The position numbers and the translations under genes were made by a program. The notes under the pieces are model-generated. The model worked only from the letters and a program-made list of their open reading frames with translations, was not told where the DNA came from and made no database searches. From an uncultured Candidatus Saccharimonadales bacterium (lineage in GTDB: Bacteria > Patescibacteriota > Saccharimonadia > UBA4664): a DNA stretch of 45,740 bases. Shown in pieces: positions 18,213-37,901 of the stretch (position 1 is the first letter of the stretch; every line of letters starts with the position of its first letter). Location of the stretch: contig CAZSRA010000007.1 of NCBI GenBank assembly GCA_964609585.1, forward strand, positions 1-45,740, read 5' to 3'.

Positions 18213-18279
18213 AATAGTTTGGTCACCTAGTGAATAATTACTCGCTTAATTATATCACCCCTGCGAGTATAATAAGCTC

Positions 18280-18744
18280 ATGCTTTTAACGAATCACACC
18301 CTCACCGGCGTCCTGCTCGGCCTTAGTATTGATAATCCTGCCCTCCTGGCACCGACCGCCGTAGCCTCGCATTTGATACTCGATACCACGCCACACTTCG
18401 GCTACACAACGGCCAAAAATGGCCCCGAAACGCGCGCGCCACTTTTTATCGTCTGGGGCGCGCTCGATTTTACCGCATCTATCGTCGTCACGGCCGCTGC
18501 TTGTTATGCCTGGCCAGCGCGCATTCCCCAAATACTCGTTGGCGTCATAGGTGCCGACCTGCCCGATCTTGTCTATATCCCCATGATTGTCTTTGGACAG
18601 AATATTTACCGAATATTGCCTTTTTACCGACCCATGATCAAATTTCTCGGGCGGATTCAGTGGTACGAAAAGCCACCCGGAATCATCACCGAAATCGTCT
18701 GGGCGACGTTTATGCTCACACTGCTAAAAGCGCGACTTGGCTAA
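18280..18744 (+). CDS. Membrane protein, probable metal-dependent hydrolase family
   Basis: NHTLTG, SHLILDTTPH, DLPD, several TM segments; TATAAT 6 nt upstream of ATG. Confidence 0.6.
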   Translation: MLLTNHTLTGVLLGLSIDNPALLAPTAVASHLILDTTPHFGYTTAKNGPETRAPLFIVWGALDFTASIVVTAAACYAWPARIPQILVGVIGADLPDLVYIPMIVFGQNIYRILPFYRPMIKFLGRIQWYEKPPGIITEIVWATFMLTLLKARLG

Positions 18745-18785
18745 TCCCGTTCCCGTCCCGTCCGGCTCGTGCTAAACTACCAGCC

Positions 18786-19958
18786 ATGGAAGAATTACTC
18801 ACCCGCGGTGTCGATCAAATCATCGGCCAAGAAGAACTCGAAAATGCCCTAGCCGGCAAGCGCAAACTCCGGTTAAAATTTGGTGTTGACCCCACCCGTC
18901 CCGACCTGCACATCGGCCATGCTGTCGTTTTGCGCAAACTCCGGGCTCTCCAAGAGCTCGGCCACACCGTTATCTTTCTCATTGGTGATTACACCACCAA
19001 AATCGGGGACCCATCTGGTAAAAGCAAAACTCGCCCCATGCTCACCGACGATGAAATTGCTGCCAACGTTGAAACGTATCTAGCTCAAGTTGGTCAGATC
19101 CTGGACATCAAAAAAGCCGAGATTCGCTACAACTCTGAGTGGCTGGGGAAGCTCTCCTTCGGTGATATCATCAACCTAGCCTCAAACATTAGTGTGGCTC
19201 AGATCATTGAGCGCGACGATTTCAAAAATCGTTTGGCTTCTGGCCAAGAGCTAGCTTTGCATGAGCTGCTCTACCCGCTCATGCAAGCCTACGACTCAGT
19301 AGCTTTAGAAGCCGATGTTGAGTTTGGTGGCACCGACCAACTCTTTAATCTCATGGCCGGCCGGGCTCTGCAGAAAAAACTCGGTCAAAAACCGCAAATC
19401 GTTTTCACCTGCGAACTTCTCGTTGGCCTCGACGGCGCTAAAAAAATGAGTAAAAGCCTCGACAACTACGTGAGTTTCACCGACACGCCCGTTGATATGT
19501 ATGGCAAAATCATGAGCCTACCAGATTCACTCATCGCACCCTACTACAAGCTGTGCACTGAAATCGCTTTACCCGTCATTGATCAACTTGTAAAAACCCT
19601 CGCGGACGGTGCCAATCCCCGCGACTCCAAGGCTTCGCTCGCCCGCGAAATCGTCCGCCTCTACCATGGTGAAGCCGCCGCCTTAAAGGCCGAAGAAAGC
19701 TGGAATGCCACCTTCCGTGACCGCAAAGGTCCCACGGATGACCAAATCCAGGTCCATCACATTAGTAAAGCCACTTCAATTCTGGAAGTCCTAACCGCCT
19801 CAGGTGCCGCCAGTAGCAATACAGAAGCCCGCCAGCTCCTGTCTCAAAACGGGGTGAAAGTAAACGACACCACCGTCACCGATGAAACCACTCAGGTCAA
19901 ATCGGGTGACCTCATTCAAGTAGGGAAGCGGCGCTTCTTCAAGCTCAAGTCAAAATGA
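18786..19958 (+). CDS. tyrS: Tyrosine--tRNA ligase
   Basis: GVDPTRPDLHIGH, YPLMQAYD, GGTDQLFN, KMSKS, S4 domain; start reassigned to MEELLTRG. Confidence 0.98.
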   Translation: MEELLTRGVDQIIGQEELENALAGKRKLRLKFGVDPTRPDLHIGHAVVLRKLRALQELGHTVIFLIGDYTTKIGDPSGKSKTRPMLTDDEIAANVETYLAQVGQILDIKKAEIRYNSEWLGKLSFGDIINLASNISVAQIIERDDFKNRLASGQELALHELLYPLMQAYDSVALEADVEFGGTDQLFNLMAGRALQKKLGQKPQIVFTCELLVGLDGAKKMSKSLDNYVSFTDTPVDMYGKIMSLPDSLIAPYYKLCTEIALPVIDQLVKTLADGANPRDSKASLAREIVRLYHGEAAALKAEESWNATFRDRKGPTDDQIQVHHISKATSILEVLTASGAASSNTEARQLLSQNGVKVNDTTVTDETTQVKSGDLIQVGKRRFFKLKSK

Positions 19959-22006
19959 GCCACGACCCACTGCAGCGACCCATCGGCTCCATCAAAGGGG
20001 TCGGGGCAGAGATGGAGCGCAAGCTTGCCCGCCTCGGCATCACGACTGCCGCAGATCTCATTCGCCATTTCCCGCGCCGCTACGATGATTTCTCCAAAAT
20101 TATTCCGATTCGTCTTATGCGTGCCGGCAATGTCACCTTCAAAGGCGAAGTGGAGCGCGTCGCCAGCCGCTATGCCCGCGCGCGCAAACTCCACCTCACC
20201 GAAGCTATCATTTCCGACGGCACCGGCACCGTAAAAGCCATTTGGTTCAATCAGCCGTATCTTGCTAAAACCATCCCGACCGGTACTCCCGTGCTCGTCA
20301 GCGGCCAAATAAAATTCAAAAACAACGACCTCGCCCTTCAGTCTCCTGCTATTGAGGCTATCACCGAAGGCAAAACCACCAAAGATACCGCTCGCATTGT
20401 GCCTGTCTATCCCGAAACCGAAGGCCTCTCGAGCAAACAATTGCGTGGCCTCATGCAGCAGGTTTTGCCGCTCGTAGACATCGTCACCGAAACCCTGCCG
20501 GAAGAAGTCATTGCCGCCTCGAAGCTCATGCCACTGGCAAAAGCTCTGCGTGAAATTCATTTTCCTAGCTCGCAGGCTCTCCTTACTAAGGCTCGTCACC
20601 GCCTCGCGTTTGAAGAGCTCTGGTATCTCATCCTCACCAGTCTCGTCATCAAGCATGAAATTAAAACCGAATCAGCACCCGCCGTGCCGTTCGACGTGGA
20701 CGCTGCCAAACAATTCGTTGGCGCGCTCGAGTTTGAACTCACCCCCGCTCAAAAACGGGCCGCCTGGGAGATTTTCCAAGACCTAGCTAAAGACACGCCC
20801 ATGAACCGGCTCCTCGAGGGCGATGTAGGCTCCGGTAAAACCGCTGTTGCCACCATGGCGGCCTATATGGCGATGCAAAACGGCTTTCAAGCTGCGCTCA
20901 TGGTTCCCACCGAAATTCTAGCTCGCCAACATGCCGAAAGCCTAAAGCCCCTCCTCGGGTCGCTCGGCCGTGAAGTGGTCCTCGTGCTGGGCAAACAGCC
21001 TGCCGCCGAGCGTGCTGCAGCCGTCGCATGTATCAATACCGGCGAGCCGCTGCTCGTCATTGGCACTCAGGCCTTGTTGGGGGACACCGTAGTGCTTCCA
21101 AACCTGGGCCTCGTCATTATCGATGAACAGCATCGCTTCGGTGTCGGTCAGCGCACCCAGCTCAAAGCCAAAGCCGGCCGCCTGCCGCATTTGCTCTCCA
21201 TGACCGCCACGCCCATCCCCCGCACGCTCCAACTCACCGTGTACGGCGAACTCGATATATCGCTCATCGAAGGTCTCCCGCCGGGGCGTAAGCCTATCAC
21301 CACGCGTGTCCTCGACGCCAAGCAGCGCGAGCAAGCTTACGGGCTTATCAACGAACAACTCGATGCCGGCCGCCAGGCTTTTATTGTTTGCCCCCTCATC
21401 GACGATTCACCCGAACTCGCCCTTAAAAGTGCCACTACCGAATACGATCGCCTAGCAAAAGGCCCATTCAAACACCGGCGCCTTGGGCTTTTGCACGGGC
21501 GTCTTTCGACCGCCGAAAAACAGGCCACCATGAACGCTTTCGCCAGTGGAGAGCTAGATTTGCTCGTAGCCACCTCTGTGATCGAAGTTGGCATCAACGT
21601 TCCCAATGCCAGCGTCATGCTCGTCGAGGATGCCCAGCGTTTTGGACTCGCCGCCCTTCATCAGCTTCGCGGCCGCATCGGGCGCGGCCCACATCCTTCC
21701 CTGTGCTTCCTCCTTGCCGAAACCAAAGCCGCAGGCACTTTGGAACGCCTGAAAGCTCTCGAAAAATCCCAAGATGGCTTCCGTCTCGCTCAAATTGACC
21801 TTGAGCTGCGTGGGCCCGGCGCTATCTACGGGCGACGCCAACACGGCGCTCTCGACGTCCAGCTCGCCGATATTGCCGACGTCAAACTTCTCGCTAGTGT
21901 TCGTGCCGAGGCCCTAAAATTCCTCTCAGACCCCGCTGCCATGATAAAATATCCTTATGTAGCAACGAAGGTGAACGCGCTCAAGGCCGTTACCTCGCTC
22001 GATTAA
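19955..22006 (+). CDS. recG: ATP-dependent DNA helicase RecG
   Basis: MNRLLEGDVGSGKT, IIDEQHRFGV, MTATPIPRTL, QLRGRIGRG, DLELRGPG. Confidence 0.98.
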   Translation: MSHDPLQRPIGSIKGVGAEMERKLARLGITTAADLIRHFPRRYDDFSKIIPIRLMRAGNVTFKGEVERVASRYARARKLHLTEAIISDGTGTVKAIWFNQPYLAKTIPTGTPVLVSGQIKFKNNDLALQSPAIEAITEGKTTKDTARIVPVYPETEGLSSKQLRGLMQQVLPLVDIVTETLPEEVIAASKLMPLAKALREIHFPSSQALLTKARHRLAFEELWYLILTSLVIKHEIKTESAPAVPFDVDAAKQFVGALEFELTPAQKRAAWEIFQDLAKDTPMNRLLEGDVGSGKTAVATMAAYMAMQNGFQAALMVPTEILARQHAESLKPLLGSLGREVVLVLGKQPAAERAAAVACINTGEPLLVIGTQALLGDTVVLPNLGLVIIDEQHRFGVGQRTQLKAKAGRLPHLLSMTATPIPRTLQLTVYGELDISLIEGLPPGRKPITTRVLDAKQREQAYGLINEQLDAGRQAFIVCPLIDDSPELALKSATTEYDRLAKGPFKHRRLGLLHGRLSTAEKQATMNAFASGELDLLVATSVIEVGINVPNASVMLVEDAQRFGLAALHQLRGRIGRGPHPSLCFLLAETKAAGTLERLKALEKSQDGFRLAQIDLELRGPGAIYGRRQHGALDVQLADIADVKLLASVRAEALKFLSDPAAMIKYPYVATKVNALKAVTSLD

Positions 22007-22022
22007 GGTCTAAAGAGAAACA

Positions 22023-22877
22023 ATGTACGCAGGGTTCATTACTCCAAAACGCGTCGTAAAATCCGCTGGCATCCACCAGCGCCTCGATACCGCTGCCTAC
22101 AAAATGATCGAACGCTACTTGCCGGATGATGCTTTTCCCGCTCTTGCCGACATTCTAAACTTTGAAGGCTACAACGGCCCCGATGGCCTCAACTCCAAAA
22201 TTGGCCTTAGCCCCAAAGGTCTCAAGTCCGAATCCGAAACCGAGCACGACCACAATCCCAGCCATCTTTACGACCCTATCAGCGATACTGGAGAAGTGCC
22301 TACGCATATCCAAAATCACTATGACGGCCTCGTGCGCTGTCTCATTGAAGGTGATATGGTGCGGGGTGCTTTCGAAGCGGCTTGGCTGGCGCATTTCGTC
22401 GGTGATGGTCTCACGCCCGCCCATCATTTTCCCCTCGAAGCCAAAATCGCCGAAGCCGCCGCCAAGGCTGCACCACAATTTGGTGACGGCAACATGAGCA
22501 AATTCACTGCCTTCGTCAAACGCAATTGGGACATTTGGGGCGCCAAAGGACATATGTCCACTCATCAAAATTTTGAGCTTGGCATCGTCTTTGCCCTCCT
22601 CATTTTCCCGATTCGGCCCGAACTCGACGACCAGGAACTCTCTCGTGCCCGCACCCTCGGACCCGTTGAATACTTTAAAGGTGAGGCCAGAGAAGTTGCG
22701 AGTCTCGATCTCTATGATCGGTTCTACAAAGAAGGCTGGAATAACGACATCGCCACCACCATCAAAAAAGTGCTGGCCCCCCAAACAGCATGCACCATTG
22801 GCCTCATTTGGCTACTTGCCTTGCTCGAAGCCGGCCAACGCCTGGCCACCACCGAGATAGAGGCTACTACTCCGTGA
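22023..22877 (+). CDS. Hypothetical protein, possible Zn-dependent phospholipase C / S1-P1 nuclease fold
   Basis: HQRLD, HYDGL, WLAHFVGDGLTPAHH, H..FE pattern of metal ligands. Confidence 0.5.
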   Translation: MYAGFITPKRVVKSAGIHQRLDTAAYKMIERYLPDDAFPALADILNFEGYNGPDGLNSKIGLSPKGLKSESETEHDHNPSHLYDPISDTGEVPTHIQNHYDGLVRCLIEGDMVRGAFEAAWLAHFVGDGLTPAHHFPLEAKIAEAAAKAAPQFGDGNMSKFTAFVKRNWDIWGAKGHMSTHQNFELGIVFALLIFPIRPELDDQELSRARTLGPVEYFKGEAREVASLDLYDRFYKEGWNNDIATTIKKVLAPQTACTIGLIWLLALLEAGQRLATTEIEATTP

Positions 22878-23410
22878 AAGTCCTTTCAGGTAGCCTGCAC
22901 GGCCGGCCCTTTGAACAACCCAAGACCCGCAGCGTCAGACCCTTGTCCGAGAAAGTGCGGGCCGCCCTTTTTGACGTCATCGGTCCCATACAGGGTCTTG
23001 CCGTTCTCGATGCCTACGCTGGCTCTGGCGCCGCCGGTTTTGAGGCGGCCAGCCGTGGGGCTATCCTTGTGGATGCTATTGAAGCGAATGCCCGCGTCGC
23101 TCGCACCATCCAGCAAAATGCTCGCGCCCTAGGCCTTGATTGGGGTTATATCTTGCATACGATGACGATCGAAACCTGGCTTGCCTCACCTCATCAAAAT
23201 CCGCCCACCCCGCGCTACGGCCTCATTATTGCCGACCCGCCATACAATCAATTAAACCCTGACATTATTGAACGTTTGGCGGCCTTCCTCACTCCAGGCG
23301 GCGTGCTCGCGCTTTCTCGCAGTAGCAAGATCCCGCCACCAGTGTTAAAATCAATCGAGCTCGCAGTGGCCAAGACCTATGGCGATACCGCCCTGAGCTT
23401 TTACAAATAA
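22874..23410 (+). CDS. rsmD: RsmD family 16S rRNA methyltransferase
   Basis: RPLSEKVRAALF, VLDAYAGSGAAGFEAASRGA, IIADPPY; GTG start overlapping the upstream stop. Confidence 0.9.
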   Translation: MKVLSGSLHGRPFEQPKTRSVRPLSEKVRAALFDVIGPIQGLAVLDAYAGSGAAGFEAASRGAILVDAIEANARVARTIQQNARALGLDWGYILHTMTIETWLASPHQNPPTPRYGLIIADPPYNQLNPDIIERLAAFLTPGGVLALSRSSKIPPPVLKSIELAVAKTYGDTALSFYK

Positions 23411-23418
23411 ACCCACAT

Positions 23419-23504
23419 GCGGATGTGGTGGAATGGTAGACACGCTAGCCTTAGGAGCTAGTGGGGGTAACCCCGTGAAGGTTCAAGTCCTTTCATCCGC
23501 ACCA
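23419..23504 (+). tRNA. tRNA-Leu(TAG)
   Basis: Acceptor GCGGATG/CATCCGC, D-loop GGAATGGTAGAC, anticodon arm CTAGC-CTTAGGA-GCTAG, long variable arm, GGTTCAAGTCC, encoded CCA. Confidence 0.97.
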
Positions 23505-23518
23505 GATTAGTATCAACC

Positions 23519-23545
23519 AAACCACGACAGAAGTCGTGGTTTTTG
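23519..23545 (+). terminator. Intrinsic terminator after tRNA-Leu (possibly bidirectional)
   Basis: AAACCACGAC-AGAA-GTCGTGGTTT followed by T-rich tail. Confidence 0.8.
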
Positions 23546-23601: not shown

Positions 23602-24735
23602 CTATCCCGTCTCTGAATGCTCAAGCGCACGAATAAATAATTCAATATCTTTAGTTTGCAAAACTGGATCTTCAAGGCCTGCATGAAAACGAACGAGTGT
23701 ATTTTTCGGCGCATCAAGCCGACTGCTTAATTCGGTTGGCTGAAATGGCAGAACGAGACTGTGGGTCCCGCCCCATGACTCTCCAATCTTAAATACGGAT
23801 AGTGTAGAAAATAACCTATCAAGCTCAGCGTCTGTATATACTCTATCGAGCTCTACGCTGAATAAACCGTTCGTACCTGTGATGTTGCCTTTCTGACCAT
23901 CTACGAAGTAAATCCTCGGTATCTTTTTGGAATTTTTCATAGAATGCAGTAATCTCCTGGCGTTATTCCCATGTGCAAGTAGTCGTACTTTTAGAGTTTC
24001 CAGTCCACGCTGCACGAGCATAGCTGAAAAGGGTGATACAGTGTAGCCGTGAATCCGGTGGTAATAGCTTAGTTTTTTAAACAGGGTTTCCGACCTTGTG
24101 GTGACTGATCCCATAAATACGTCACTATAGCCAGCCGGATATTTTGTGAGACTGAGAATACTTATATCTACCCCATAATCCAGTGGATGCGACAAAACAC
24201 CGGCTGCCCATGTGTTATCTTCTGATGTTAATATTTCTCGTGATTTAGCTACTTCGACGACTGCATCTATATCAGTTACTTCAAATGTGGCTGATCCTGG
24301 AGATTCAATATGAATGAGCTTGGTTGTGTCGCGAATGGCCCGTTTTAGTGTGGAGAGGTCCTTTACGGAATACATGTCGTATGAGATTCCGAAGCGCTCC
24401 TGTAAATACTGCGCATATCGCCGAACAGGTGCATAGACAATATCCGGAATAAGCCAATGATCGCCCGAAGATAGCAACGCACTAAGCGCAATCAACGCAG
24501 TTAACCCACTGGGAAACAATAGCGTATGGCTACCATGCTCAAGTGCAGAAATAGAATCCTGCAGCTTTTGTAATGTCGGGTTTCCCTGGAGGCCATAGCC
24601 ATTGTCTACCCCGCTCACCACTTGGTTGATAAGCGTTGGTTTTCCGGCGCCTGCCGCTCTGTAGTCATGCAAACTGTCGAAGTACAGGCTAGTGGTTAGT
24701 TGTAATGAACGAGTAGTGTGATCGTTATTTCCCAT
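23602..24735 (-). CDS. metC: Cystathionine beta-lyase-like PLP enzyme (Cys/Met metabolism family)
   Basis: YGLQGNPT, LFPSGLTA, IESPGSATFEV, DNTWAAG, SLTKYPAGYSD (PLP lysine), IGESWGG..SL, VRFHAGLED. Confidence 0.85.
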   Translation of the reverse strand: MGNNDHTTRSLQLTTSLYFDSLHDYRAAGAGKPTLINQVVSGVDNGYGLQGNPTLQKLQDSISALEHGSHTLLFPSGLTALIALSALLSSGDHWLIPDIVYAPVRRYAQYLQERFGISYDMYSVKDLSTLKRAIRDTTKLIHIESPGSATFEVTDIDAVVEVAKSREILTSEDNTWAAGVLSHPLDYGVDISILSLTKYPAGYSDVFMGSVTTRSETLFKKLSYYHRIHGYTVSPFSAMLVQRGLETLKVRLLAHGNNARRLLHSMKNSKKIPRIYFVDGQKGNITGTNGLFSVELDRVYTDAELDRLFSTLSVFKIGESWGGTHSLVLPFQPTELSSRLDAPKNTLVRFHAGLEDPVLQTKDIELFIRALEHSETG

Positions 24736-24738
24736 GAC

Positions 24739-25773
24739 CTACTTCCACTTTCCGAGGAACGCTTTTTCATGCTGTCGCACAACTTTATTCGCCCCGAGAA
24801 TGCCGTGTTGTGTCATGTCGGGCGAGTATCTACTCGCCGGTACGATACGGCCGAGTGCTTCAGCCATTGACCGAACACTATGTGGTGCTCCGCCGCAGCA
24901 GATACCAATGTAGTTAACGCCATACTCCTGCGCTTTAAGTGCGAAATCTGCCATTTCGTTACGCGTGCACAAAAAGTGATCAAGCGACAGCGGGAACGCT
25001 CGTTCGCCTTTGTATTTAAGATATTGAAAGGCCGGGAATTGAGGTGTGGTGCGATACGGAACGGGTTGGGCTGCGATTGGACAAGATACGGCCTTTCGCA
25101 GCTTCTTGAGCAGCGGAAGCATTGTATTGGGGCCGGCTATGCAGTTAAACCCGACTACATCAGCACCTTTTTCTTCAAGGATTCGACAGCCTTCAATCCA
25201 GTCGTATCCATCTTTGCTCTGAGGGTACGTAGTTGCAAAAGTGATAAATGCTGGTAAGTTATATTTCTTGATAACTTCCAGGGCGATCAGCGCCTCTCCA
25301 ACATATTCAATGGTTTCGGCAATAATGAAGTCGACCCCTTCTTCTGCTGCCCATCGTACTTGCTCGTCATACATCTGGCGCACTTCCTCGGAACTTTGTT
25401 CTTTATTGTTGGGGTCATAGACCCAAGTGTTGCAAATATTACCGGCTACAAGCGCATTACCCTCTTCTGCAATTTCCCTTGCAATGCGAACAGCCTGTCT
25501 ATTGAGTCGTTCGAGATCTTTTTCACGGTCGATAACTCGCAATTTATCTCGATGAGCATAATACGTAAACGCTACCATTACTTCACTGCCTGCTCGCAAG
25601 AATTCACGGTGTAACTCGCGGAGTGCATCTGGATAGTCGAGCACGACTTCGGGCACATATGCGCCAGCCTTTAGATAACCCCGGCGTTCAAGTTCAAATA
25701 AATATCCTTCGGCTCCTAGCACAGCACCCTTTTGCAGCCGTTCTAGTATGTTTTGCTTTACTGGTGATGTCAT
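24739..25773 (-). CDS. Homocysteine S-methyltransferase, betaine-homocysteine methyltransferase (BHMT)-like
   Basis: EGYLFELERRGYLKAG, LHREFLRAGS, Zn ligands GFNC and GICCGGAPH; start reassigned to ATG 25773 after GAAAGGA. Confidence 0.92.
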   Translation of the reverse strand: MTSPVKQNILERLQKGAVLGAEGYLFELERRGYLKAGAYVPEVVLDYPDALRELHREFLRAGSEVMVAFTYYAHRDKLRVIDREKDLERLNRQAVRIAREIAEEGNALVAGNICNTWVYDPNNKEQSSEEVRQMYDEQVRWAAEEGVDFIIAETIEYVGEALIALEVIKKYNLPAFITFATTYPQSKDGYDWIEGCRILEEKGADVVGFNCIAGPNTMLPLLKKLRKAVSCPIAAQPVPYRTTPQFPAFQYLKYKGERAFPLSLDHFLCTRNEMADFALKAQEYGVNYIGICCGGAPHSVRSMAEALGRIVPASRYSPDMTQHGILGANKVVRQHEKAFLGKWK

Positions 25774-25802
25774 AGAAATCCTTTCATACGTTATCGAACG
25801 CA

Positions 25803-25830
25803 ATTAAATAAACCGGCCCTAGGCCGGTTT
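25803..25830 (-). terminator. Attenuator terminator upstream of the methyltransferase
   Basis: Minus strand AAACCGGCC-TAG-GGCCGGTTT then ATTTAATT. Confidence 0.75.
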
Positions 25831-25849: not shown

Positions 25850-25924
25850 CTATGAAAGCGGCCTAGGGCGAGACATGGGCATAGGCATCATCACAGTTTG
25901 GGCGTTATGGTGTTTTGTTTGCAT
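25850..25924 (-). CDS. Met-rich leader peptide 1, MQTKHHNAQTVMMPMPMSRPRPLS (24 aa; not in the ORF track)
   Basis: Read directly from the reverse complement; 4 Met in 6 codons; codons 19-22 contain GCCCTAGGCCG, the exact complement of the terminator 5' arm and loop. Confidence 0.8.
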   Translation of the reverse strand: MQTKHHNAQTVMMPMPMSRPRPLS

Positions 25925-25961: not shown

Positions 25962-26375
25962 CTACGGGTGCAGCTTTAATCCGTGGACGATTTTGTCGAA
26001 GGTTTTACGATCTGCACGTATGGCTATCCCAACGATAGTAAATGCGCTGTCCCTTAGTGTCTTGACGACTGCTCGATTATCTATATCGTTGTCTGTTTTG
26101 AACATTCCTTCCGCATAAATTGCCGGTTTTACTCCACGATTTAGAGCCCGGTCTTTTGTCCGGATAAGGTGCTCTTGTGGTGCGGCATAGATAAAGACGG
26201 GTTGTACGATCAGTGGCAAATATTTGTGGTTGGTGGCGTCTTCATAGTCCTCTCCTATGCTTTCGGGCGCTGATGCCGCTATTCCAGTTGCCAAGAAGGC
26301 TGTGACATTGAGCTTCTGCCAGTCCAGTAGGTCGTCCCGGATCACGATGCCTACTTTAGTATCATGTGTTGCCAT
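25962..26375 (-). CDS. DUF2000 family protein (peptidyl-tRNA hydrolase II-like fold)
   Basis: KVGIVIRDDLLDWQKLNVTAFLATGI, YEDA...YLPL..QP, ...DKIVHGLKLHP; SD AAAGGAG. Confidence 0.8.
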   Translation of the reverse strand: MATHDTKVGIVIRDDLLDWQKLNVTAFLATGIAASAPESIGEDYEDATNHKYLPLIVQPVFIYAAPQEHLIRTKDRALNRGVKPAIYAEGMFKTDNDIDNRAVVKTLRDSAFTIVGIAIRADRKTFDKIVHGLKLHP

Positions 26376-26393: not shown

Positions 26394-26421
26394 TAAAAAA
26401 CCTCCGTTTTGCAGCGGAGGT
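26394..26421 (-). terminator. Attenuator terminator upstream of DUF2000
   Basis: Minus strand ACCTCCG-CTGCAAAA-CGGAGGT then TTTTTATT. Confidence 0.85.
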
Positions 26422-26451: not shown

Positions 26452-26514
26452 CTAAAACTCCGCCTCACGGTGGGGCATCATTGCCATCATCATATTGCGG
26501 GTATTGTTAGTCAT
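26452..26514 (-). CDS. Met-rich leader peptide 2, MTNNTRNMMMAMMPHREAEF (20 aa; alternative in-frame ATG at 26523)
   Basis: 5 Met in 6 codons; 3' end GCGGAGTTTTAGTTTGTCG pairs with CGACAACTACCTCCGC, which includes the terminator 5' arm. Confidence 0.85.
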   Translation of the reverse strand: MTNNTRNMMMAMMPHREAEF

Positions 26515-26521
26515 TGGCTTC

Positions 26522-26550
26522 ATTCTATGTTGCTAGCGGTATTTTATCAA
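26522..26550 (-). promoter_or_regulatory. Promoter of the Met operon, giving a leaderless or near-leaderless leader-peptide mRNA
   Basis: TTGATA-N17-TAGAAT, 7 nt upstream of ATG 26514. Confidence 0.7.
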
Positions 26551-26621: not shown

Positions 26622-26638
26622 TAACCGGAGGACATAAA

Positions 26639-26923
26639 ACGAAAACTACAACCTAAGTAAAAATGTGGGGCAATAGCCTGGCGATCCGCATTCCTTCTCG
26701 GGTAGCCCGAGATCTAGGGCTAACAATCGATAGCCAGATAGAAATCGCCAGCGATGGCAGCACCGCCACCATAAAACGCGAAGAGAACCCCCGCCTATCC
26801 TTAGAAGAAATTAGTCAAACCCCTCGACATACTATCCGACCATTGCAAAAGAGTTCGAATGAAAGCCGTTCAAGGGCACCAAGACACTATTTTTTTATGC
26901 TTCCACTAGACATGAATTGTTGA
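26639..26923 (+). pseudogene. mazE: Decayed AbrB/MazE/SpoVT antitoxin gene; no toxin gene follows
   Basis: GGAGG-N7-ACG AAA ACT ACA ACC TAA GTA AAA ATG TGG GGC AAT AGC (start appears as ACG, in-frame TAA); WGNSLAIRIP..A..LGL motif; similarity lost after LSLEE. Confidence 0.7.
26839..26881 (+). repeat. Direct repeat copy 1 (43 bp)
   Basis: ACCATTGCA-AAAGAGTTCGAATGAAAGCCGTTCAAGGGCACCA; differs from copy 2 by 1 indel and 2 substitutions. Confidence 0.9.
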
Positions 26924-26987: not shown

Positions 26988-27329
26988 TTAAAATAGTTTG
27001 CTTCCCAGCGGCACTTCGCGTTCGGGCTGCGACAGAACCACATTGCCATGTGCATCCGCGAAACCAAGCGTAAGGCTTTCTGATATGAACGGACCTATCT
27101 GCTTGGGCGGAAAGTTCACAACTCCCATCACGAGCCGCCCGATCAACTCTTCTTTTGTATAATGTTTGGTTATTTGAGCCGACGAGCGCTTTAAGCCAAT
27201 TTCAGAGCCGAAGTCGATCGTAAGTTTATAGGCTGGTTTTCTTGCTTGAGGAAAATCCTCAGCGGCAATAATTTTCCCGGTTCGAATATCTATTTGCTCA
27301 AAGTCTGCGTAAGTGATGGTATTGTTCAT
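26988..27329 (-). CDS. csaA: tRNA-binding protein CsaA/Trbp111 (homologous to the MetRS C-terminal domain)
   Basis: DFEQIDIRTGKII, KPAYKLTIDFG, SSAQITKHY, VVNFPPKQIGPFISESLTLG. Confidence 0.92.
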   Translation of the reverse strand: MNNTITYADFEQIDIRTGKIIAAEDFPQARKPAYKLTIDFGSEIGLKRSSAQITKHYTKEELIGRLVMGVVNFPPKQIGPFISESLTLGFADAHGNVVLSQPEREVPLGSKLF

Positions 27330-28335: not shown

Positions 28336-29781
28336 CTACTTACGCATTTGCCATCGGCGGATCCTATGGCCAATAACGATGATGGCAAATAGCCCACTTA
28401 CCCATGCAAACACATCGCCAATCTTGCCGTATGGCGTATCGCCATTACCGACAGGCACAGTTGCCACACGAGAGCTAAAGGTGATCGACGAGCTCATGTT
28501 CTGTGCGATTACCCGTCCACGGTTATCGCTGACCGTTTGTTCGCCCTTTCGTGCAGATCGTGCTACCGAAAAGCCATCCTCAACGCCACGCATAACTGCA
28601 ATACGGGCATGCATCCAGTGGTCAATGGTGAAATCCTCGGCCGGTACGTAGACAAGGCCAACATGCTGTCCAGCGACGTCACTACGGATCATGTCCGGAA
28701 AGTCCATATCTTTGCAAATCTCCACTGCTGCGCCATCGCCGAGTAATCCTGGGGTTGAGCCGGGCATCAAGCCACCTTCATCACTACTAGACTCGGCGGT
28801 TAGTAATCGCCGTTTTGCGTAGGTTTTGCTCGTGCCGTCAGGCTCAAACAATATTGCGATATTGTGCCCGCTCGTGTCGGATGTCTCGTCGTCAAATCCC
28901 GCCACAATGCTCAGATGGTCGGTGCGTGCTTCGTTGGCTAGGGGAGCGAGAGCGGCGTCTCGCCACGCGGGCTTAAGGATTGCTAACTTCTCGGGCAATA
29001 CGACCCTCGAAAGCCCCGAATGCGTCACAGCAACCGCATGAATGTCGGCCGCGTAGGTAGTTGTAAGGTTAATCCAAGTTGGTGCGCCGCTCGCCCGTAG
29101 TGAGGAGGTGTCTTTAGCGATCACGGCTACCTGCGTGGTCACCTGACCGGCACTGGTACTAAGTCTGAGGATCCCAAATCCAAGGTTAGCTAGGAACGCA
29201 GTGGCCACGACCATTAAAAGAGGCTTAGCGTACCTTCGATCGCGCAGTGATAATGCAATGCCGTTGGCAAGCAGACAAATGAGGAACGTAATGCTCCATA
29301 TACCAAAAAGGGAGGCACTTTGTATTAATACTGGAGCGCCCACCTGAGTGTAAGCGAATGATCCGACCGTTCCGTTAGGTGAAACTAGTGAAGTTATATA
29401 CTCGGTAGCAGTCCACAATGCAGGGAAGAATAGCAGTGCTGCTACCCAATTTGAGCGTTTATAGACCCATTTGGTGAGAAGCACTGCAATGACGGCCGTT
29501 ACGGCGAGACCCAAAACACCAAATGTGACCCCGATAGTTGCTGCACCCGTTCCGAGAAATGGTCGGATAAATTCGCTATTGCCAATGCCGAAAGCTAGAA
29601 ATGTTGCAAGTCCCACGCGCCATCCAGGTTGCCTGCTGTAGGCCAGCCACAGCAGAGGTAGTGGAGCAATCCATGCCAGAGCCCACAGGGAGCCAAGTCC
29701 CGTTGACGCATAGAAAGCCAGAGCACTCACTGCAGTGCAGCCGATCACTCCGGCCCAGTCTTTTTGTTTGAGGTTATTCAC
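28336..29781 (-). CDS. Apolipoprotein N-acyltransferase-like membrane protein with C-N hydrolase domain
   Basis: TM N-terminus, LAWIAPLPL, triad candidates VLPEK / YAKRRL / EICKD, MRGVEDG, SDNRG; GTG start after AAAGGAG. Confidence 0.8.
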   Translation of the reverse strand: MNNLKQKDWAGVIGCTAVSALAFYASTGLGSLWALAWIAPLPLLWLAYSRQPGWRVGLATFLAFGIGNSEFIRPFLGTGAATIGVTFGVLGLAVTAVIAVLLTKWVYKRSNWVAALLFFPALWTATEYITSLVSPNGTVGSFAYTQVGAPVLIQSASLFGIWSITFLICLLANGIALSLRDRRYAKPLLMVVATAFLANLGFGILRLSTSAGQVTTQVAVIAKDTSSLRASGAPTWINLTTTYAADIHAVAVTHSGLSRVVLPEKLAILKPAWRDAALAPLANEARTDHLSIVAGFDDETSDTSGHNIAILFEPDGTSKTYAKRRLLTAESSSDEGGLMPGSTPGLLGDGAAVEICKDMDFPDMIRSDVAGQHVGLVYVPAEDFTIDHWMHARIAVMRGVEDGFSVARSARKGEQTVSDNRGRVIAQNMSSSITFSSRVATVPVGNGDTPYGKIGDVFAWVSGLFAIIVIGHRIRRWQMRK

Positions 29782-29818
29782 TCTGCGCTCCTTTATCTTA
29801 CCGTATTCATCTGCGATA

Positions 29819-29834
29819 ATGTAACATGTTACAT
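29819..29834. promoter_or_regulatory. Perfect 16-bp palindrome, probable MarR operator
   Basis: ATGTAACATGTTACAT between the divergent lnt-like and marR genes. Confidence 0.65.
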
Positions 29835-29856
29835 ACTTAATGATCAATGGGTCTAA

Positions 29857-30291
29857 ATGGAAAATTTTGAGTTTATCTTCGAGCTAAACCGTGCGGTCAA
29901 TATCTTCAATGCGTACTATGACACTCGGATCGCGCCAGACACGGCGATAAGCCGAGCGCAATTCACGGTGTTGCTACTTATCAATCGTTTTCCTGGCATT
30001 ACGAAAGCAGAACTTGCACGCAAGCTTAGTTGTTCGCATGTCGCTATAGGCAGAGTCGTTAAAATTTTAGTTAGCGCAGGCTATGTGGATGAGTCATTGG
30101 ATCCACAAAACTCGCATCTTGTGCATCTTGAGCCGACCAAGTTAGGCAAAAGTATGGTCGAAAGTGTTACGCGTACGTTTAACCAGGTTTCTGCTTCTTT
30201 GTTTGCAGGCCTGGAGGATAAAGTTAAGCTTAGTCCATTACGTGAACAGCTTGTAGCATTTAGTGAGACGGTCTTAAGGCATAAATCCTGA
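29857..30291 (+). CDS. MarR-family transcriptional regulator
   Basis: ISRAQFTVLLLI, ITKAELARKL, GRVVKILVSAGYV, LEPTKLG. Confidence 0.85.
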   Translation: MENFEFIFELNRAVNIFNAYYDTRIAPDTAISRAQFTVLLLINRFPGITKAELARKLSCSHVAIGRVVKILVSAGYVDESLDPQNSHLVHLEPTKLGKSMVESVTRTFNQVSASLFAGLEDKVKLSPLREQLVAFSETVLRHKS

Positions 30292-30364
30292 TCAATCCAC
30301 CGTTGGTGCCATCAATTCCTACAGTATGCCGTCGAACCTACCGATGTTGTAATAAAATATTTGC

Positions 30365-30387
30365 TATATACCCCTAGGGGGTATATA
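30365..30387. promoter_or_regulatory. CsoR-type operator
   Basis: TATATACCCC-TAG-GGGGTATATA immediately upstream of csoR. Confidence 0.85.
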
Positions 30388-30395
30388 TATGAAAT

Positions 30396-30722
30396 ATGAT
30401 TTCCAACGTTAAAAAGCGTACAATTCACCGCTCCAAGATCATCGAAGGTCAAATAAAGGGCCTGCAAAAGATGATCGACAACGAGGCCTATTGCATGTAT
30501 ATACTCACACAAAGCCTAGCCATTCAAAAGTCGCTTGCATCGCTAGACAAGCTCATCCTAGAGAACCATATACGTACTCACATCGTCGAGATGATGAGTT
30601 CGGGCGACGAGGGAAAGCAAGACAAAGCGCTCGCGGAACTGCTCGAACTGTACAAACTTCATAACATTAAGGGTCGGTCGGCAGATAGTGTTCCCGCGTC
30701 CATCAATAAAATGAATGTGTAG
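30396..30722 (+). CDS. csoR: CsoR/RcnR-family metal-sensing repressor
   Basis: IEGQIKGLQKMIDNEAYC..ILTQ, ILENHIRTH (second Cys position is His). Confidence 0.9.
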   Translation: MISNVKKRTIHRSKIIEGQIKGLQKMIDNEAYCMYILTQSLAIQKSLASLDKLILENHIRTHIVEMMSSGDEGKQDKALAELLELYKLHNIKGRSADSVPASINKMNV

Positions 30723-30748
30723 CTAAAATAGCTAAGGAGGGTAAAATC

Positions 30749-32743
30749 TTGAAACCAGTAAATCACGATGAACACGTCGACCACGATAAACACGCTGGAC
30801 ACGACCCCAACATGTTTAAGCAAAAGTTCTGGCTAAGCCTTGCGCTTACCATTCCCACGCTTTTATTCTCTGATACCGTCCAAGGCTGGTTTGGCTTGCA
30901 CTGGATATTCTCCGGCAGCCGCTATATTCCGGCTGTTTTTGGCACAATTATTTTCTTCTACGGTGGGTTAGTATTTCTAAAAAGCGCCAGAGTCGAGCTA
31001 GAGGCTCGCCTGCCCGGCATGATGACGCTCATCTCGATGGCCATTTCGGTAGCCTTTGGTTACAGTATCGCCGTTACCCTCAAACTCGTGAATGGTATGG
31101 ATTTCTGGTGGGAGCTTGCGACGCTAGTTACGATTATGCTCCTTGGGCATTGGCTCGAAATGGCTTCGGTGCGAAACGCGCAGGGCGCGCTAAAAGAACT
31201 CGCTAAGCTATTACCAGATGAAGTTGAGCTTGTGGTCGCTGGTGGTACAAAAAAAGTAGCGCTAGCCGAATTAAAAATTGGCGACCTGGTGCTCATTCGT
31301 CCCGGCGTCCAAATCCCAGCCGATGGTGAAGTAGTGAAGGGCGACTCAGACGTCAATGAATCAATGCTCACTGGCGAGTCAAAGCCAGTTAAGAAAACGG
31401 CAGAAGCACCAGTCATCGGCGGCACTATCAATGGTAGCGGCTCGTTAACCATCAGAATTACAAAGATCGGTGACGACACAGCCCTAGCTGGCATCATGAA
31501 GCTTGTAGCCCAGGCACAAAGTAGTAAGTCAAAAACACAAATTGTGGCAGATAAGGCCGCCTTCTATCTGACATTCGTAGCGCTTGGCGCAGCGGCGATC
31601 ACATGGGTAGCCTGGGCCGTGGCTGGGCAGACTGCGGGCTTCATCTTGGAGCGGATCGTTACCGTGCTAGTCATCGCTTGCCCGCATGCACTCGGCCTAG
31701 CCGTTCCCCTTGTGACCGCCATTTCCACGACACTCGCCGCCAAAAATGGTTTGCTTATTCGGCAGCGTATGGCGCTTGAAGCTGCCCGTAATATTGATGT
31801 GATACTGTTTGATAAGACAGGTACCCTCACAACCGGAAAGCAAGGGGTCGTAGATATTATTGCGAGTGGTGATAAAAACCAACTACTCGGGCTCGCTGCT
31901 GCCGTAGAGAATGAATCCGAGCACCCGATTGCTACGGCAATCGTGAGTTCTGCAAAAAAGCAGAACATAAAAATTCCACAAGCTACGGGCTTCAGCTCCC
32001 TCGCCGGACGCGGAGCCGGGGCCACCATTGCCGGTAACACCGTGCATGTAGGCAGTCCGCGCCTCATTGAGGAATTGAAAGCCGCAATTTCAGATGATTT
32101 GGCCACAGCATCGGCCCAGGCATCGAAGGAGGGTAAGACCGTGGTGTATGTTGTCCAAGATAAAACAGTCCACGGGGCAATCATGCTAGCCGACGTTATC
32201 CGGGAAGAGTCCAAAGAAGCGGTCTCTATCCTGCATGCTATGGGTAAACGCGTTGCCATGCTTACCGGCGATAGCAAGGGCGTAGCTGCATGGGTGGCGA
32301 AAGAAATTGGGATCGATGAGTATTTTGCTGAAGTATTGCCCGAGAACAAAGCCGATACCGTCAAAAAACTTCAGGCCGACGGCAGCAACGTTGCCATGGT
32401 CGGAGATGGTGTTAACGATGCTCCAGCTCTCACGCAGGCTGATGTCGGTATTGCGATTGGAGCTGGTACGGATGTGGCGATTGAGTCAGCGGGTATCGTA
32501 CTAGCATCGAGTGACCCACGAGGGGTGCCGAAAATCGTCAAACTGTCTAAAGCCACGTACCGTAAGATGATACAAAATCTTGCATGGGCCACTGGCTACA
32601 ATGCCCTGGCTATACCCCTCGCAGCCGGCGCGACAGCTGCGCTTGGTTTCGTCTTGTCACCAGCCTTTGGTGCAGTACTGATGTCGCTTTCAACGATTGT
32701 AGTAGCAATTAACGCCCAATTTTTGCGCAAACTAAAGCTGTAA
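30749..32743 (+). CDS. copB: Copper-translocating P1B-type ATPase (CopB-like, CPH motif)
   Basis: His-rich N-terminus, TGES, ACPHALGLA, DKTGTLT, SEHP, MVGDGVNDAPAL, YN and MSLS TM motifs. Confidence 0.93.
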   Translation: MKPVNHDEHVDHDKHAGHDPNMFKQKFWLSLALTIPTLLFSDTVQGWFGLHWIFSGSRYIPAVFGTIIFFYGGLVFLKSARVELEARLPGMMTLISMAISVAFGYSIAVTLKLVNGMDFWWELATLVTIMLLGHWLEMASVRNAQGALKELAKLLPDEVELVVAGGTKKVALAELKIGDLVLIRPGVQIPADGEVVKGDSDVNESMLTGESKPVKKTAEAPVIGGTINGSGSLTIRITKIGDDTALAGIMKLVAQAQSSKSKTQIVADKAAFYLTFVALGAAAITWVAWAVAGQTAGFILERIVTVLVIACPHALGLAVPLVTAISTTLAAKNGLLIRQRMALEAARNIDVILFDKTGTLTTGKQGVVDIIASGDKNQLLGLAAAVENESEHPIATAIVSSAKKQNIKIPQATGFSSLAGRGAGATIAGNTVHVGSPRLIEELKAAISDDLATASAQASKEGKTVVYVVQDKTVHGAIMLADVIREESKEAVSILHAMGKRVAMLTGDSKGVAAWVAKEIGIDEYFAEVLPENKADTVKKLQADGSNVAMVGDGVNDAPALTQADVGIAIGAGTDVAIESAGIVLASSDPRGVPKIVKLSKATYRKMIQNLAWATGYNALAIPLAAGATAALGFVLSPAFGAVLMSLSTIVVAINAQFLRKLKL

Positions 32744-37100: not shown

Positions 37101-37133
37101 TAAAACACTTATGCTTATGTTATATTGCTCACT

Positions 37134-37901
37134 ATGAGCAAACCCATATCTACGACAAGTCTTCGCAAACTCAATGCCTTCATGGCGATCCTGCATGCTG
37201 CCCAAGCCATCGCTATTTTGCTTTTAGCAAAAGACTTTAAGCTCCCTCTCACCATTGCGTATTTGCAGTTTAACCCTGCTACCCGCGGTCTAGAGACTCA
37301 CATTCACACGCTGGGCCAAGTACCCCTCGCCGCGCTGATAGTCGCATTCTTTGCCCTCTCGGCTCTAGCGCATCTTTTTGTAGCCACCGTGTATCGTCGT
37401 CGATACGAGGCCGATTTAGCCCGTAGTATCAACTATATTCGCTGGATCGAATATTCTCTGTCGGCAAGCACCATGATGGTCGCGATCGCCATGCTTGTTG
37501 GCGTGTACGACGCGCCGTCTCTGGGTATGATCTTCGTCCTCACTGCCGGCATGAACCACATGGGGCTCATCATGGAAGTGCACAACCAAACTACGAAGCG
37601 CACAAATTGGCTCAGTTTTCGAATTGGAACCGTGCTCGGGGTAATGCCTTGGCTCGTTATCCTGGCCTACTTCCTCTCAAGCGCCGCCTATGGCTCTACG
37701 CCGCCCACCTTCGTCTACTGGATTTTCGTCTCCATTTTCATCTTTTTCAACTGCTTCGCCATCAACATGGTCCTGCAATACAAAAAAGTAGGTCCTTGGC
37801 GCGATTATCTCTACGGCGAGCGGGCTTACATTATCTTAAGTTTGGTTGCCAAATCGCTTCTAGCCTGGCAAGTCTTTGCCGGCACTCTCCGGCCAAATTA
37901 G
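37134..37901 (+). CDS. heR: Heliorhodopsin
   Basis: LHAAQAI, AHLF, NYIRWIEYSLSASTM, YGERAYIILSLVAKSLLAWQVF (retinal-binding Lys), 7 TM. Confidence 0.96.
   Translation: MSKPISTTSLRKLNAFMAILHAAQAIAILLLAKDFKLPLTIAYLQFNPATRGLETHIHTLGQVPLAALIVAFFALSALAHLFVATVYRRRYEADLARSINYIRWIEYSLSASTMMVAIAMLVGVYDAPSLGMIFVLTAGMNHMGLIMEVHNQTTKRTNWLSFRIGTVLGVMPWLVILAYFLSSAAYGSTPPTFVYWIFVSIFIFFNCFAINMVLQYKKVGPWRDYLYGERAYIILSLVAKSLLAWQVFAGTLRPN

Follow-up and report, generated by a model that had tools for sequence, protein, structure and literature searches.

Layout of the locus and its methionine-rich leaders

The window (the whole stretch of DNA analyzed here, 45,740 nucleotides) is contig 7 of a 1.30-Mb assembly from an uncultured Candidatus Saccharimonadales bacterium, with a completeness of 94% and an estimated contamination of 4.8%; the genomes of relatives from the same order or phylum measure 0.6–2.0 Mb. 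It carries a gene for a zinc-dependent homocysteine S-methyltransferase resembling betaine-homocysteine methyltransferase (BHMT) and, directly behind it, a gene for a pyridoxal-phosphate (PLP) enzyme resembling the cystathionine β-lyase MetC. Both open reading frames (ORFs) lie on the minus strand, 3 bp apart (24736–24738), as an earlier note on this DNA had stated. Its further remarks that the pair is richer in AT than the housekeeping genes and has a tRNA gene at its side also held: the GC content between 23602 and 25773 amounts to 46.6%, while the genome averages 53.1%, and a tRNA-Leu gene on the plus strand, convergent with the PLP enzyme gene, is separated from its 3′ end by 97 bp. Among equally sized segments of the genome, this GC content falls at the 2.5th percentile; the entire stretch from 23.5 to 30.7 kb is GC-poor, too (47.1%). 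That the genome appeared to belong to the Candidate Phyla Radiation (CPR) was borne out as well. The nearest named homologues (75–88% identity) of NusA, which is encoded on this contig, stem from Candidatus Saccharimonadia, Saccharimonadales, and Saccharibacteria, and the left flank of the locus is syntenic with genomes of the same genus. Judged by these sequence features, the host genome is that of a member of the Saccharimonadia.

Read along the minus strand, the order of elements is a promoter-like site, a Met-rich leader, a DUF2000 gene, another Met-rich leader, the BHMT-like gene, and the MetC-like gene. The BHMT-like/MetC-like pair is the tail of one operon, putatively methionine-controlled, which is composed as follows:

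26522..26550, minus strand: promoter-like site (TTGATA, 17 nt, TAGAAT) ending at the ATG of leader 1; 10 of 12 positions match the consensus, and the assignment is a consensus match only
26452..26523, minus strand: leader ORF 1, a Met-run mini-ORF of 23 codons, 8 of them Met, with the core MMMAMM
26400..26421, minus strand: terminator hairpin of the first attenuator (hairpin and fold)
25962..26375, minus strand: DUF2000 protein, 137 aa, first gene of the operon (PF09391, 121 bits; PDB 2GAX, Atu0240)
25850..25924, minus strand: leader ORF 2, a Met-run mini-ORF of 24 codons, 5 of them Met, with the core MMPMPM and the tail RPRPLS
25810..25830, minus strand: terminator hairpin of the second attenuator, directly 5′ of the BHMT-like gene (hairpin and fold)
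24739..25773, minus strand: zinc-dependent homocysteine S-methyltransferase of the BHMT-like type, 344 aa when counted from the ATG at 25773 (PF02574, 149.8 bits), putatively the only methionine synthase
23602..24735, minus strand: MetC-like PLP enzyme, 377 aa, putative cystathionine β-lyase of a CPR-specific clade (PF01053, 239.7 bits)

Only two mini-ORFs with runs of Met codons occur in the entire 45.7-kb window, namely the two leaders of this operon, and a terminator follows each of them. In the fold of leader 2, the final codons of the ORF pair with one arm of the terminator, which is the alternative structure required by a classical attenuator. No known riboswitch was found in the window, where Rfam at the gathering score returned the tRNA alone. 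Methionine-linked signals recur in front of homologous genes. Of the 18 loci of the CPR clade (see below) for which upstream DNA was available, seven (the window, L008, L029, L031, L109, L110, and L122) contain a Met-run leader ORF ending 65–100 nt 5′ of the BHMT-like gene, and four (L069, L082, L076, and L086) contain a SAM-I riboswitch, which senses S-adenosylmethionine (SAM), at the same position. In 11 loci from Chloroflexota, Actinomycetota, or archaea, no riboswitch was present 5′ of the BHMT-like gene. Because two unrelated sensors of methionine or SAM precede it, there is strong evidence that the BHMT-like family makes methionine. A comparable signal was observed for the MetC-like gene: in locus L014, from another Patescibacteria genome, it is located behind a Met-rich leader (MPMSMFSPRPIS) with 3 Met among 12 codons and a tail of the PRPIS type. 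The link to methionine drawn in the earlier note is thus supported from several sides, namely the Met-codon leaders of the window, the Met leaders or SAM riboswitches in front of homologues, and a neighboring gene for methionyl-tRNA synthetase (MetRS; see below).

The two enzymes and the methionine genes of the host

The BHMT-like ORF extends from 24739 to 25803, its probable start codon being the ATG at 25773, where homologues start as well. The protein scored 149.8 bits against PF02574 (gathering cut-off 22) over residues 50–317, and its zinc cysteines C211, C292, and C293 (in the motifs GFNC and GICCGG; numbered from that ATG) were invariant in 31 homologues. When the PDB was searched, the best solved relatives were rat BHMT (188 bits) and human BHMT (183 bits), both over residues 15–338. 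Other branches of PF02574 were weaker, with at most 79 bits for MetH and 32.9 bits for the homocysteine S-methyltransferase (HMT) 5DML, and the MmuM-type model NF007020 yielded 64.9 bits vs a cut-off of 215.

The BHMT-like family is large and well conserved, being represented in at least 589 species genomes with a mean column identity of 68%. In a tree of 98 sequences, the protein of the window resides inside a supported clade (97% in the Shimodaira–Hasegawa-like approximate likelihood ratio test, SH-aLRT), the labeled members of which are nearly all Saccharibacteria, Parcubacteria, Levybacteria, “Patescibacteria,” or Micrarchaeota. This CPR/DPANN-labeled clade adjoins a Methanosarcinales group and is separate from the clade of Chloroflexota and Actinomycetota. 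The taxon labels given by submitters are imperfect: one contig labeled “Candidatus Micrarchaeota” carries a bacterial-type large signal recognition particle (SRP) RNA (L041:3067-3321; 69.7 bits vs a gathering score of 60), which is why the DPANN labels were not relied upon. Branching within the CPR clade is discordant with taxonomy, a pattern that would fit repeated transfer among episymbionts. The BHMT-like sequence of locus L066 (Candidatus Saccharimonadales, DATIJK010000043.1) groups with the Chloroflexota/Actinomycetota clade, which suggests a second, independent acquisition.

The gene neighborhoods of the family bear on the methyl donor. In 38 loci from Chloroflexota or Actinomycetota (L048:7030-8208, L047:7044-8303, L059:7026-7829, and 35 more; 60–69% identity between the BHMT-like proteins), the gene adjoins one for an MSOX/MTOX-like amine oxidase or a DAO-type flavoenzyme, often together with one for a PhnD-like binding protein. 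Such an arrangement would be expected for betaine or another N-methyl donor, and it looks like a candidate for a widespread demethylation module. In the CPR loci L109, L110, and L009, genes for class I SAM-dependent methyltransferases abut the BHMT-like gene; none of these neighbors gave a match to the S-methylmethionine (SMM)-forming enzyme MmtN in the PDB. When these three were used as queries (they are not a verified MmtN), tblastn detected no homologue in the genome of the window. As the host thus lacks a methyltransferase of this neighbor type, the methyl donor would need to be imported. SMM is slightly ahead of betaine as the putative donor of the BHMT-like enzyme.

The assignment of the PLP enzyme to PF01053 is clear (239.7 bits vs a gathering cut-off of 27); the top NCBIfam models are all for cystathionine β-lyase, and the best solved relatives are MetC of the E. 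coli type (163 bits). The protein belongs to a clade of ∼53 sequences (99% support; 55–72% identity) that mostly bear CPR labels and are sharply set apart from proteobacterial MetC (∼40% identity). A catalytic set consisting of K198 (the PLP lysine), D173 (facing the pyridine nitrogen), Y101, R349, and S320-W321 is kept in all or nearly all of the 53 members; residues specific to the clade include Asn52, Glu319, and Thr324. The residues of the E. coli enzyme that contact the distal part of the substrate, R58, R59, and D116, are replaced in the protein of the window by Leu, Gln, and Arg, respectively. This loss was considered as an argument against lyase function and dropped, as such substitutions are common in proteobacterial homologues: Leu occupies the R58 position in 36 of 66 and Arg the D116 position in 21 of 66. 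Because the exchanges at the first and third positions are this frequent, the three residues do not define the family. L-Cystathionine, or a similar S-conjugate of cysteine, is most likely the substrate of the PLP enzyme, as suggested by its operon partners and regulation.

Elsewhere in the genome, the genes for MetK and for SahH, the hydrolase of S-adenosylhomocysteine (SAH), are intact. PF02574 is represented by a single gene and PF01053 by a single real one; a further member of PF02574, as MetH would be, and another real Cys/Met PLP enzyme were not found in the genome, nor were MetE, LuxS, a Pfs-type nucleosidase, MetX, or MetA in the 94% of it that the assembly represents. A methionine-binding protein of the MetQ type was not found in it either. 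The sole enzyme of the PALP fold is TrpB, the β subunit of tryptophan synthase (G000:C1:113746-114720; TIGR00263, 509 bits), so CBS and CysK, too, count among the genes not found. TrpB itself is possibly another salvage enzyme catalyzing only the last step toward an amino acid. Given the gaps in the inventory, no methionine synthase other than the BHMT-like enzyme is detectable in this organism and, with the genes for homocysteine synthesis missing, net homocysteine must be sourced externally; the MetC-like enzyme is the only candidate in the genome for the use of cystathionine. Because MetK and SahH are present, the BHMT-like enzyme would also close the methyl cycle, for which it need not rely on the lyase.

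The distribution of SahH among relatives is patchy. It was found in 6 of 41, and 4 of these 6 genomes also have a module consuming homocysteine. Of the five SahH genomes other than that of the window, three (G001, G003, and G011) encode a CBS-like and a CGL-like enzyme, and all three are devoid of the BHMT-like gene. The SahH-bearing genomes are kin, and no statistic was drawn from this co-occurrence. In two genomes of the same genus as the window, adjacent genes encode a CBS/CysK-like and a CGL/CGS-like PLP enzyme (L005:1483-3651 in G003 and L003:1468-3644 in G001). By their family assignments, the CBS-like/CGL-like pair possibly serves reverse transsulfuration, that is, the conversion of homocysteine to cysteine.

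Insertion site, rarity, and gene partners

Both genes are rare accessory genes in CPR bacteria: neither the BHMT-like gene nor the MetC-like clade was found in any of 40 relatives (from the genus, family, and order) or in any of 300 genomes drawn from across the phylum. Any protein of the MetC-like family was encoded in 6 of these 300, at 29–34% identity. The site at which the pair resides is framed by the following features:

23419..23504, plus strand: tRNA-Leu (anticodon TAG; ARAGORN; Rfam tRNA, 60.9 bits), which anchors the variable region on the left; synteny with same-genus genomes extends no further than this gene
23519..23542, strand not assigned: hairpin rich in GC and accompanied by T runs, located between the convergent tRNA-Leu and MetC-like genes and likely terminating both
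26627..26923, plus strand: mazE-like antitoxin gene (PF04014), right edge of a 3.1-kb insertion
26988..27329, minus strand: CsaA-type tRNA-binding protein related to the C-terminal domain of MetRS (NF007495, 178 bits, above the cut-off)

Synteny with five same-genus genomes covers the genes for TyrRS, RecG, RsmD, and tRNA-Leu (18166–23505; 72–74% nucleotide identity) and ends at 23505. The match resumes with mazE-like DNA at 26627–26881, which is 81% identical at the nucleotide level to DNA in genomes G003 and G005 (also recovered by tblastn). In G003, this DNA lies ∼1 kb from the same tRNA-Leu, and the 3.1-kb segment between 23505 and 26626 is absent; in G005, it follows a 9-kb island at the same tRNA-Leu. 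As matching DNA is found close to this tRNA-Leu in two genomes of the genus, the mazE-like gene marks the right edge of the insertion. The segment 23505–26626 spans everything from promoter to terminator, pointing to the insertion of a complete unit at a hotspot. The horizontal acquisition postulated in the earlier note is therefore backed by the rarity of the genes, the tRNA-Leu hotspot with its genus-conserved flanks, the deviant GC content, and the trees of both genes. As the BHMT-like clade is almost wholly CPR/DPANN-labeled, the donor was probably another episymbiont (CPR) and not a free-living host.

In the nearest relatives, the two genes are partners, too. Behind the BHMT-like gene of P0006, which is closest to that of the window (82% identity), a gene for a PF01053 protein of 375 aa begins 5 bp downstream, and the MetC-like gene of L111, likewise the closest to its counterpart in the window (72% identity), has the 3′ end of a BHMT-like gene in front of it. 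After this MetC-like gene, genes for a B3/4-domain protein, MetRS, and a tRNA_bind protein resembling the C terminus of MetRS follow (L111:2095-4131). In both trees, the proteins of the window are sister to those from pair-bearing contigs; hence, the pair moves as a unit within this small lineage. In genome G341, a BHMT-like and a MetC-like gene are both present and unlinked. The BHMT-like gene is the more widespread and independently mobile element of the two.

The DUF2000 gene also has a counterpart near a MetC-like gene. In L014, a DUF2000 protein (80% identity) is encoded two genes downstream of the MetC-like gene, with a cupin gene in between, and after the cupin and DUF2000 genes the cluster contains one for an α/β-hydrolase. 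Its structural relative, PDB 2GAX (Atu0240), is an uncharacterized protein. From this gene context, DUF2000 is a candidate for a new player in methionine or homocysteine handling. The CsaA-type gene lies just upstream of the operon on the same strand, outside the 3.1-kb segment that is absent from G003, and its membership in the cassette is uncertain.

Other features of the region concern the hotspot and its surroundings. The island of G005 (L025:693-7770) encodes a large serine recombinase overlapping the end of the tRNA, an HD-domain protein, an SRAP peptidase, and a reverse transcriptase. The mazE-like antitoxin gene of the window (26663–26923, plus strand) lacks a mazF partner; its homologues in G003 and G005 are followed by a gene for a PemK/MazF toxin (L024:3539-3904 and L025:9925-10290, respectively). 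To the right of the cassette (28336–32743), genes are located for an Lnt-like apolipoprotein N-acyltransferase, a MarR regulator, and a CsoR-type metal repressor with a P-type ATPase, followed by Nramp; synteny is broken on this side, as Nramp matches same-genus genomes at other loci. Further downstream, the accessory region contains a heliorhodopsin gene (37125–37901, plus strand; PF18761, 318 bits). An ORF of 615 aa without a Pfam match (6718–8565, minus strand) lies in a GC-rich stretch (∼60%).

A proposed salvage route to methionine, its alternatives, and known systems

CPR bacteria are thought to take up almost all of their amino acids in finished form from their hosts. Against this background, the locus is probably best explained as an acquired operon (DUF2000, BHMT-like, and MetC-like), induced by methionine starvation, that completes methionine synthesis from scavenged precursors in a member of the Saccharimonadia otherwise incapable of it. 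The gene identities, family placements, missing pathway parts, rarity, insertion site, and comparative regulatory signals are observed; the substrates, the methyl donor, the direction of flux, and the role of DUF2000 are what we infer from them. As long as charged Met-tRNA is abundant, the two Met-codon leader peptides and their terminators would hold the operon off. Upon its induction, the BHMT-like enzyme, being zinc-dependent and independent of both cobalamin and folate, would transfer a methyl group from pre-formed SMM or glycine betaine onto homocysteine to yield methionine, thereby closing the cycle that leads via MetK to SAM, on to SAH, and via SahH back to homocysteine. The MetC-like enzyme would cleave scavenged L-cystathionine, or a similar S-conjugate of cysteine, into homocysteine, pyruvate, and ammonia, and it is this step that would provide a net gain of methionine.

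Several observations weigh against this reading. The two proteins stay below the relevant equivalog cut-offs of NCBIfam, the BHMT-like one for bacterial BHMT (NF005718, 82.6 vs 338 bits) and the MetC-like one for cystathionine β-lyase (NF005456, 274.5 vs 500 bits; TIGR01324, 230.1 vs 365.9 bits). The homocysteine-binding fingerprint DGG of BHMT (with Asp26) is not conserved, the aligned residues being AEG; Glu22 and Gly23 thereof are invariant within the clade, and this Glu may substitute for the Asp of DGG. At the positions aligned to Trp44 and Tyr160 of BHMT, Tyr/Phe and Thr are found, respectively; that aligned to Phe76 is Tyr, and Tyr77 is retained (YY is invariant). These four residues we take to form the betaine pocket of animal BHMT. 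Transporters for betaine (BCCT and OpuAC) were not found in the genome, and the permeases that were found are two generic ones of the APC family only. As the completeness of the genome is 94%, genes that were not found may sit in gaps of the assembly. Neither a MetC-like nor a DUF2000 gene occurred within 6 kb of the BHMT-like gene in any of 80 genome loci, and genome G340 has MetC-like and DUF2000 genes without the BHMT-like one; linkage of the BHMT-like and MetC-like genes is restricted to the nearest relatives and is not general in either family. Finally, of the traits of a tRNA-anchored island, the insertion next to a tRNA, conserved flanks, and deviant GC content are present, but a repeat of the 3′ end of tRNA-Leu longer than 12 nt and an integrase or recombinase among the neighboring ORFs were not found.

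The same genes could serve merely to recycle or detoxify homocysteine, with a PLP enzyme of general C-S lyase or desulfhydrase activity toward cysteine, cystine, or other S-conjugates and without any route from cystathionine to methionine. MetC-family enzymes are promiscuous C-S lyases, BHMT-like genes mostly occur without a MetC-like gene, and SahH is accompanied by a homocysteine-consuming module in most of the few relatives that possess it, all of which would agree with this view. However, the gene for the PLP enzyme follows that for the BHMT-like enzyme at a distance of 3 bp and is under the control of Met-codon attenuators, the same pair exists in the nearest relatives of both genes, and a MetC-like gene on its own is found behind a Met leader (L014) or beside MetRS (L111). 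As control by methionine starvation suits the production of methionine better than desulfhydration, we regard recycling as the sole function of the module as unlikely. Very unlikely is a role of the BHMT-like enzyme as one half of an SMM cycle, in which it would, together with MmtN, buffer methionine and SAM rather than act as a net methionine synthase. Such a cycle has a precedent in the functional group II MmtN that CPR bacteria encode beside putative HMT genes (Peng et al, 2022; PMC9135737), and class I methyltransferase genes do abut the BHMT-like gene in L109, L110, and L009. Yet these neighbors resemble no MmtN in the PDB and have no counterpart in the genome considered here, and the partner encoded in the window is a lyase, not a methyltransferase.

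Because activities are interconverted within the Cys/Met PLP family, the PLP enzyme might also make homocysteine de novo, as a sulfhydrylase or γ-synthase acting on activated homoserine, and the α/β-hydrolase gene in the cluster of L014 could be taken as a hint in this direction. This hydrolase has no clear homologue in the genome, though, where MetX and MetA were not found either; the PLP enzyme groups with β-lyases of the MetC type and not with MetY, MetZ, or MetB, and the Ser-Trp preceding GG is kept in it, as it is in E. coli MetC and nearly all proteobacterial homologues of the cystathionine β-lyase type. De novo synthesis is, thus, highly improbable. It is scarcely credible that the genes are foreign to a CPR genome and reached the assembly through a mis-binned or chimeric contig. 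The estimated contamination (4.8%) and the deviant GC content of the segment would allow for it, but the region 18166–23505, the mazE-like DNA at 26627–26881, and Nramp match same-genus genomes, NusA on the contig is Saccharimonadia-like, and the closest homologues of both genes are CPR-labeled. A mis-binned or chimeric contig was rejected on the grounds that both flanks match genomes of the genus.

If the preferred reading of a starvation-induced operon for methionine salvage is correct, a few CPR lineages have regained the final step, or the final two steps, toward methionine in a form that needs no vitamin, carried on a compact mobile unit that regulates itself. The metabolites passing from host to symbiont would then include homocysteine or cystathionine together with a methyl donor, for instance betaine or SMM, which offers a testable nutritional handle for culturing Saccharibacteria from soil. 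Two uncharacterized clades of enzymes and the DUF2000 family are flagged as methionine-linked, and the CBS-like/CGL-like pair of sister species would represent a different answer to the homocysteine problem and a natural comparison. A broader version, speculative and distinctly unlikely in its full extent, would have the CPR BHMT-like clade, DUF2000, and the MetC-like clade form a mobile cassette that finishes the methionine pathway of the host: fed by a sulfur intermediate of the latter and by a methyl donor other than betaine or SMM, it would pass from one episymbiont to another, each time equipped with its own sensor of methionine or SAM, and which cassette a symbiont holds would set the degree to which it depends on its host for methionine.

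Within the collection of papers searched, there was none joining betaine-homocysteine with Patescibacteria, none on the use of cystathionine by Saccharibacteria, and none mentioning DUF2000. Individual parts of the locus do resemble known systems. With mammalian BHMT and BHMT2 (PDB 1LT8 and 1UMY), the methyltransferase shares ∼325 collinear residues, the PF02574 TIM barrel, the three zinc cysteines, the N-terminal motif ILERL...FxLE(K/R)RGY, and the segment after the barrel; like BHMT2, it has a shorter loop after the YY motif than BHMT, visible as a gap in the alignment. It differs in lacking the long C-terminal arm for oligomerization (344 vs 406 aa) and in having AEG for DGG. The PLP enzyme has kept the PLP lysine, Asp173, the stacking Tyr101, the carboxylate-binding Arg349, and the Ser-Trp-Gly-Gly motif of E. 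coli MetC (1CL1), but with ∼35–40% identity and sub-equivalog scores it is placed in a clade of its own. In E. coli, MmuM, a homocysteine methyltransferase of PF02574, makes methionine from a sulfonium donor imported by the APC-family permease MmuP. The two APC permeases of the genome studied here could likewise import the donor; however, no permease gene is linked to the cassette, and scores for the MmuM type are far below those for BHMT.

The proposed regulation is reminiscent of the trpL and hisL attenuators: the regulatory codon is concentrated in a mini-ORF, a terminator follows, and the last stretch of the mini-ORF takes part in a competing structure. In contrast to these, the leaders in the window would sense methionine, and two units are arranged in series. 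In “Candidatus Pelagibacter ubique” (SAR11), BhmT is encoded behind SAM-sensing riboswitches and strongly induced by shortage of sulfur or methionine (PMC5069961). There, too, a streamlined genome depends on a BHMT-type enzyme to convert homocysteine to methionine, and a sarcosine-oxidase-like gene is linked, as in the Chloroflexota and Actinomycetota relatives of the enzyme described here. SAR11 is free-living, though, and also has MetY and MmuM, whereas the window combines leaders rich in Met codons with a MetC-like partner in a CPR host of the episymbiont type. The SMM cycle proposed for CPR and DPANN (Peng et al, 2022, Nat Commun 13:2947), compared here by description, likewise ties an HMT to methionine metabolism in these organisms, sometimes with MetRS nearby, and the BHMT-like relatives of the window have methyltransferase and MetRS neighbors as well; the genome of the window has no detectable MmtN-like partner, and a MetC-like partner and Met leaders are outside that description. 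The strategy encoded at this locus is, thus, rare but has precedents in the riboswitch-controlled BhmT of SAR11 and the predicted HMT of CPR bacteria.

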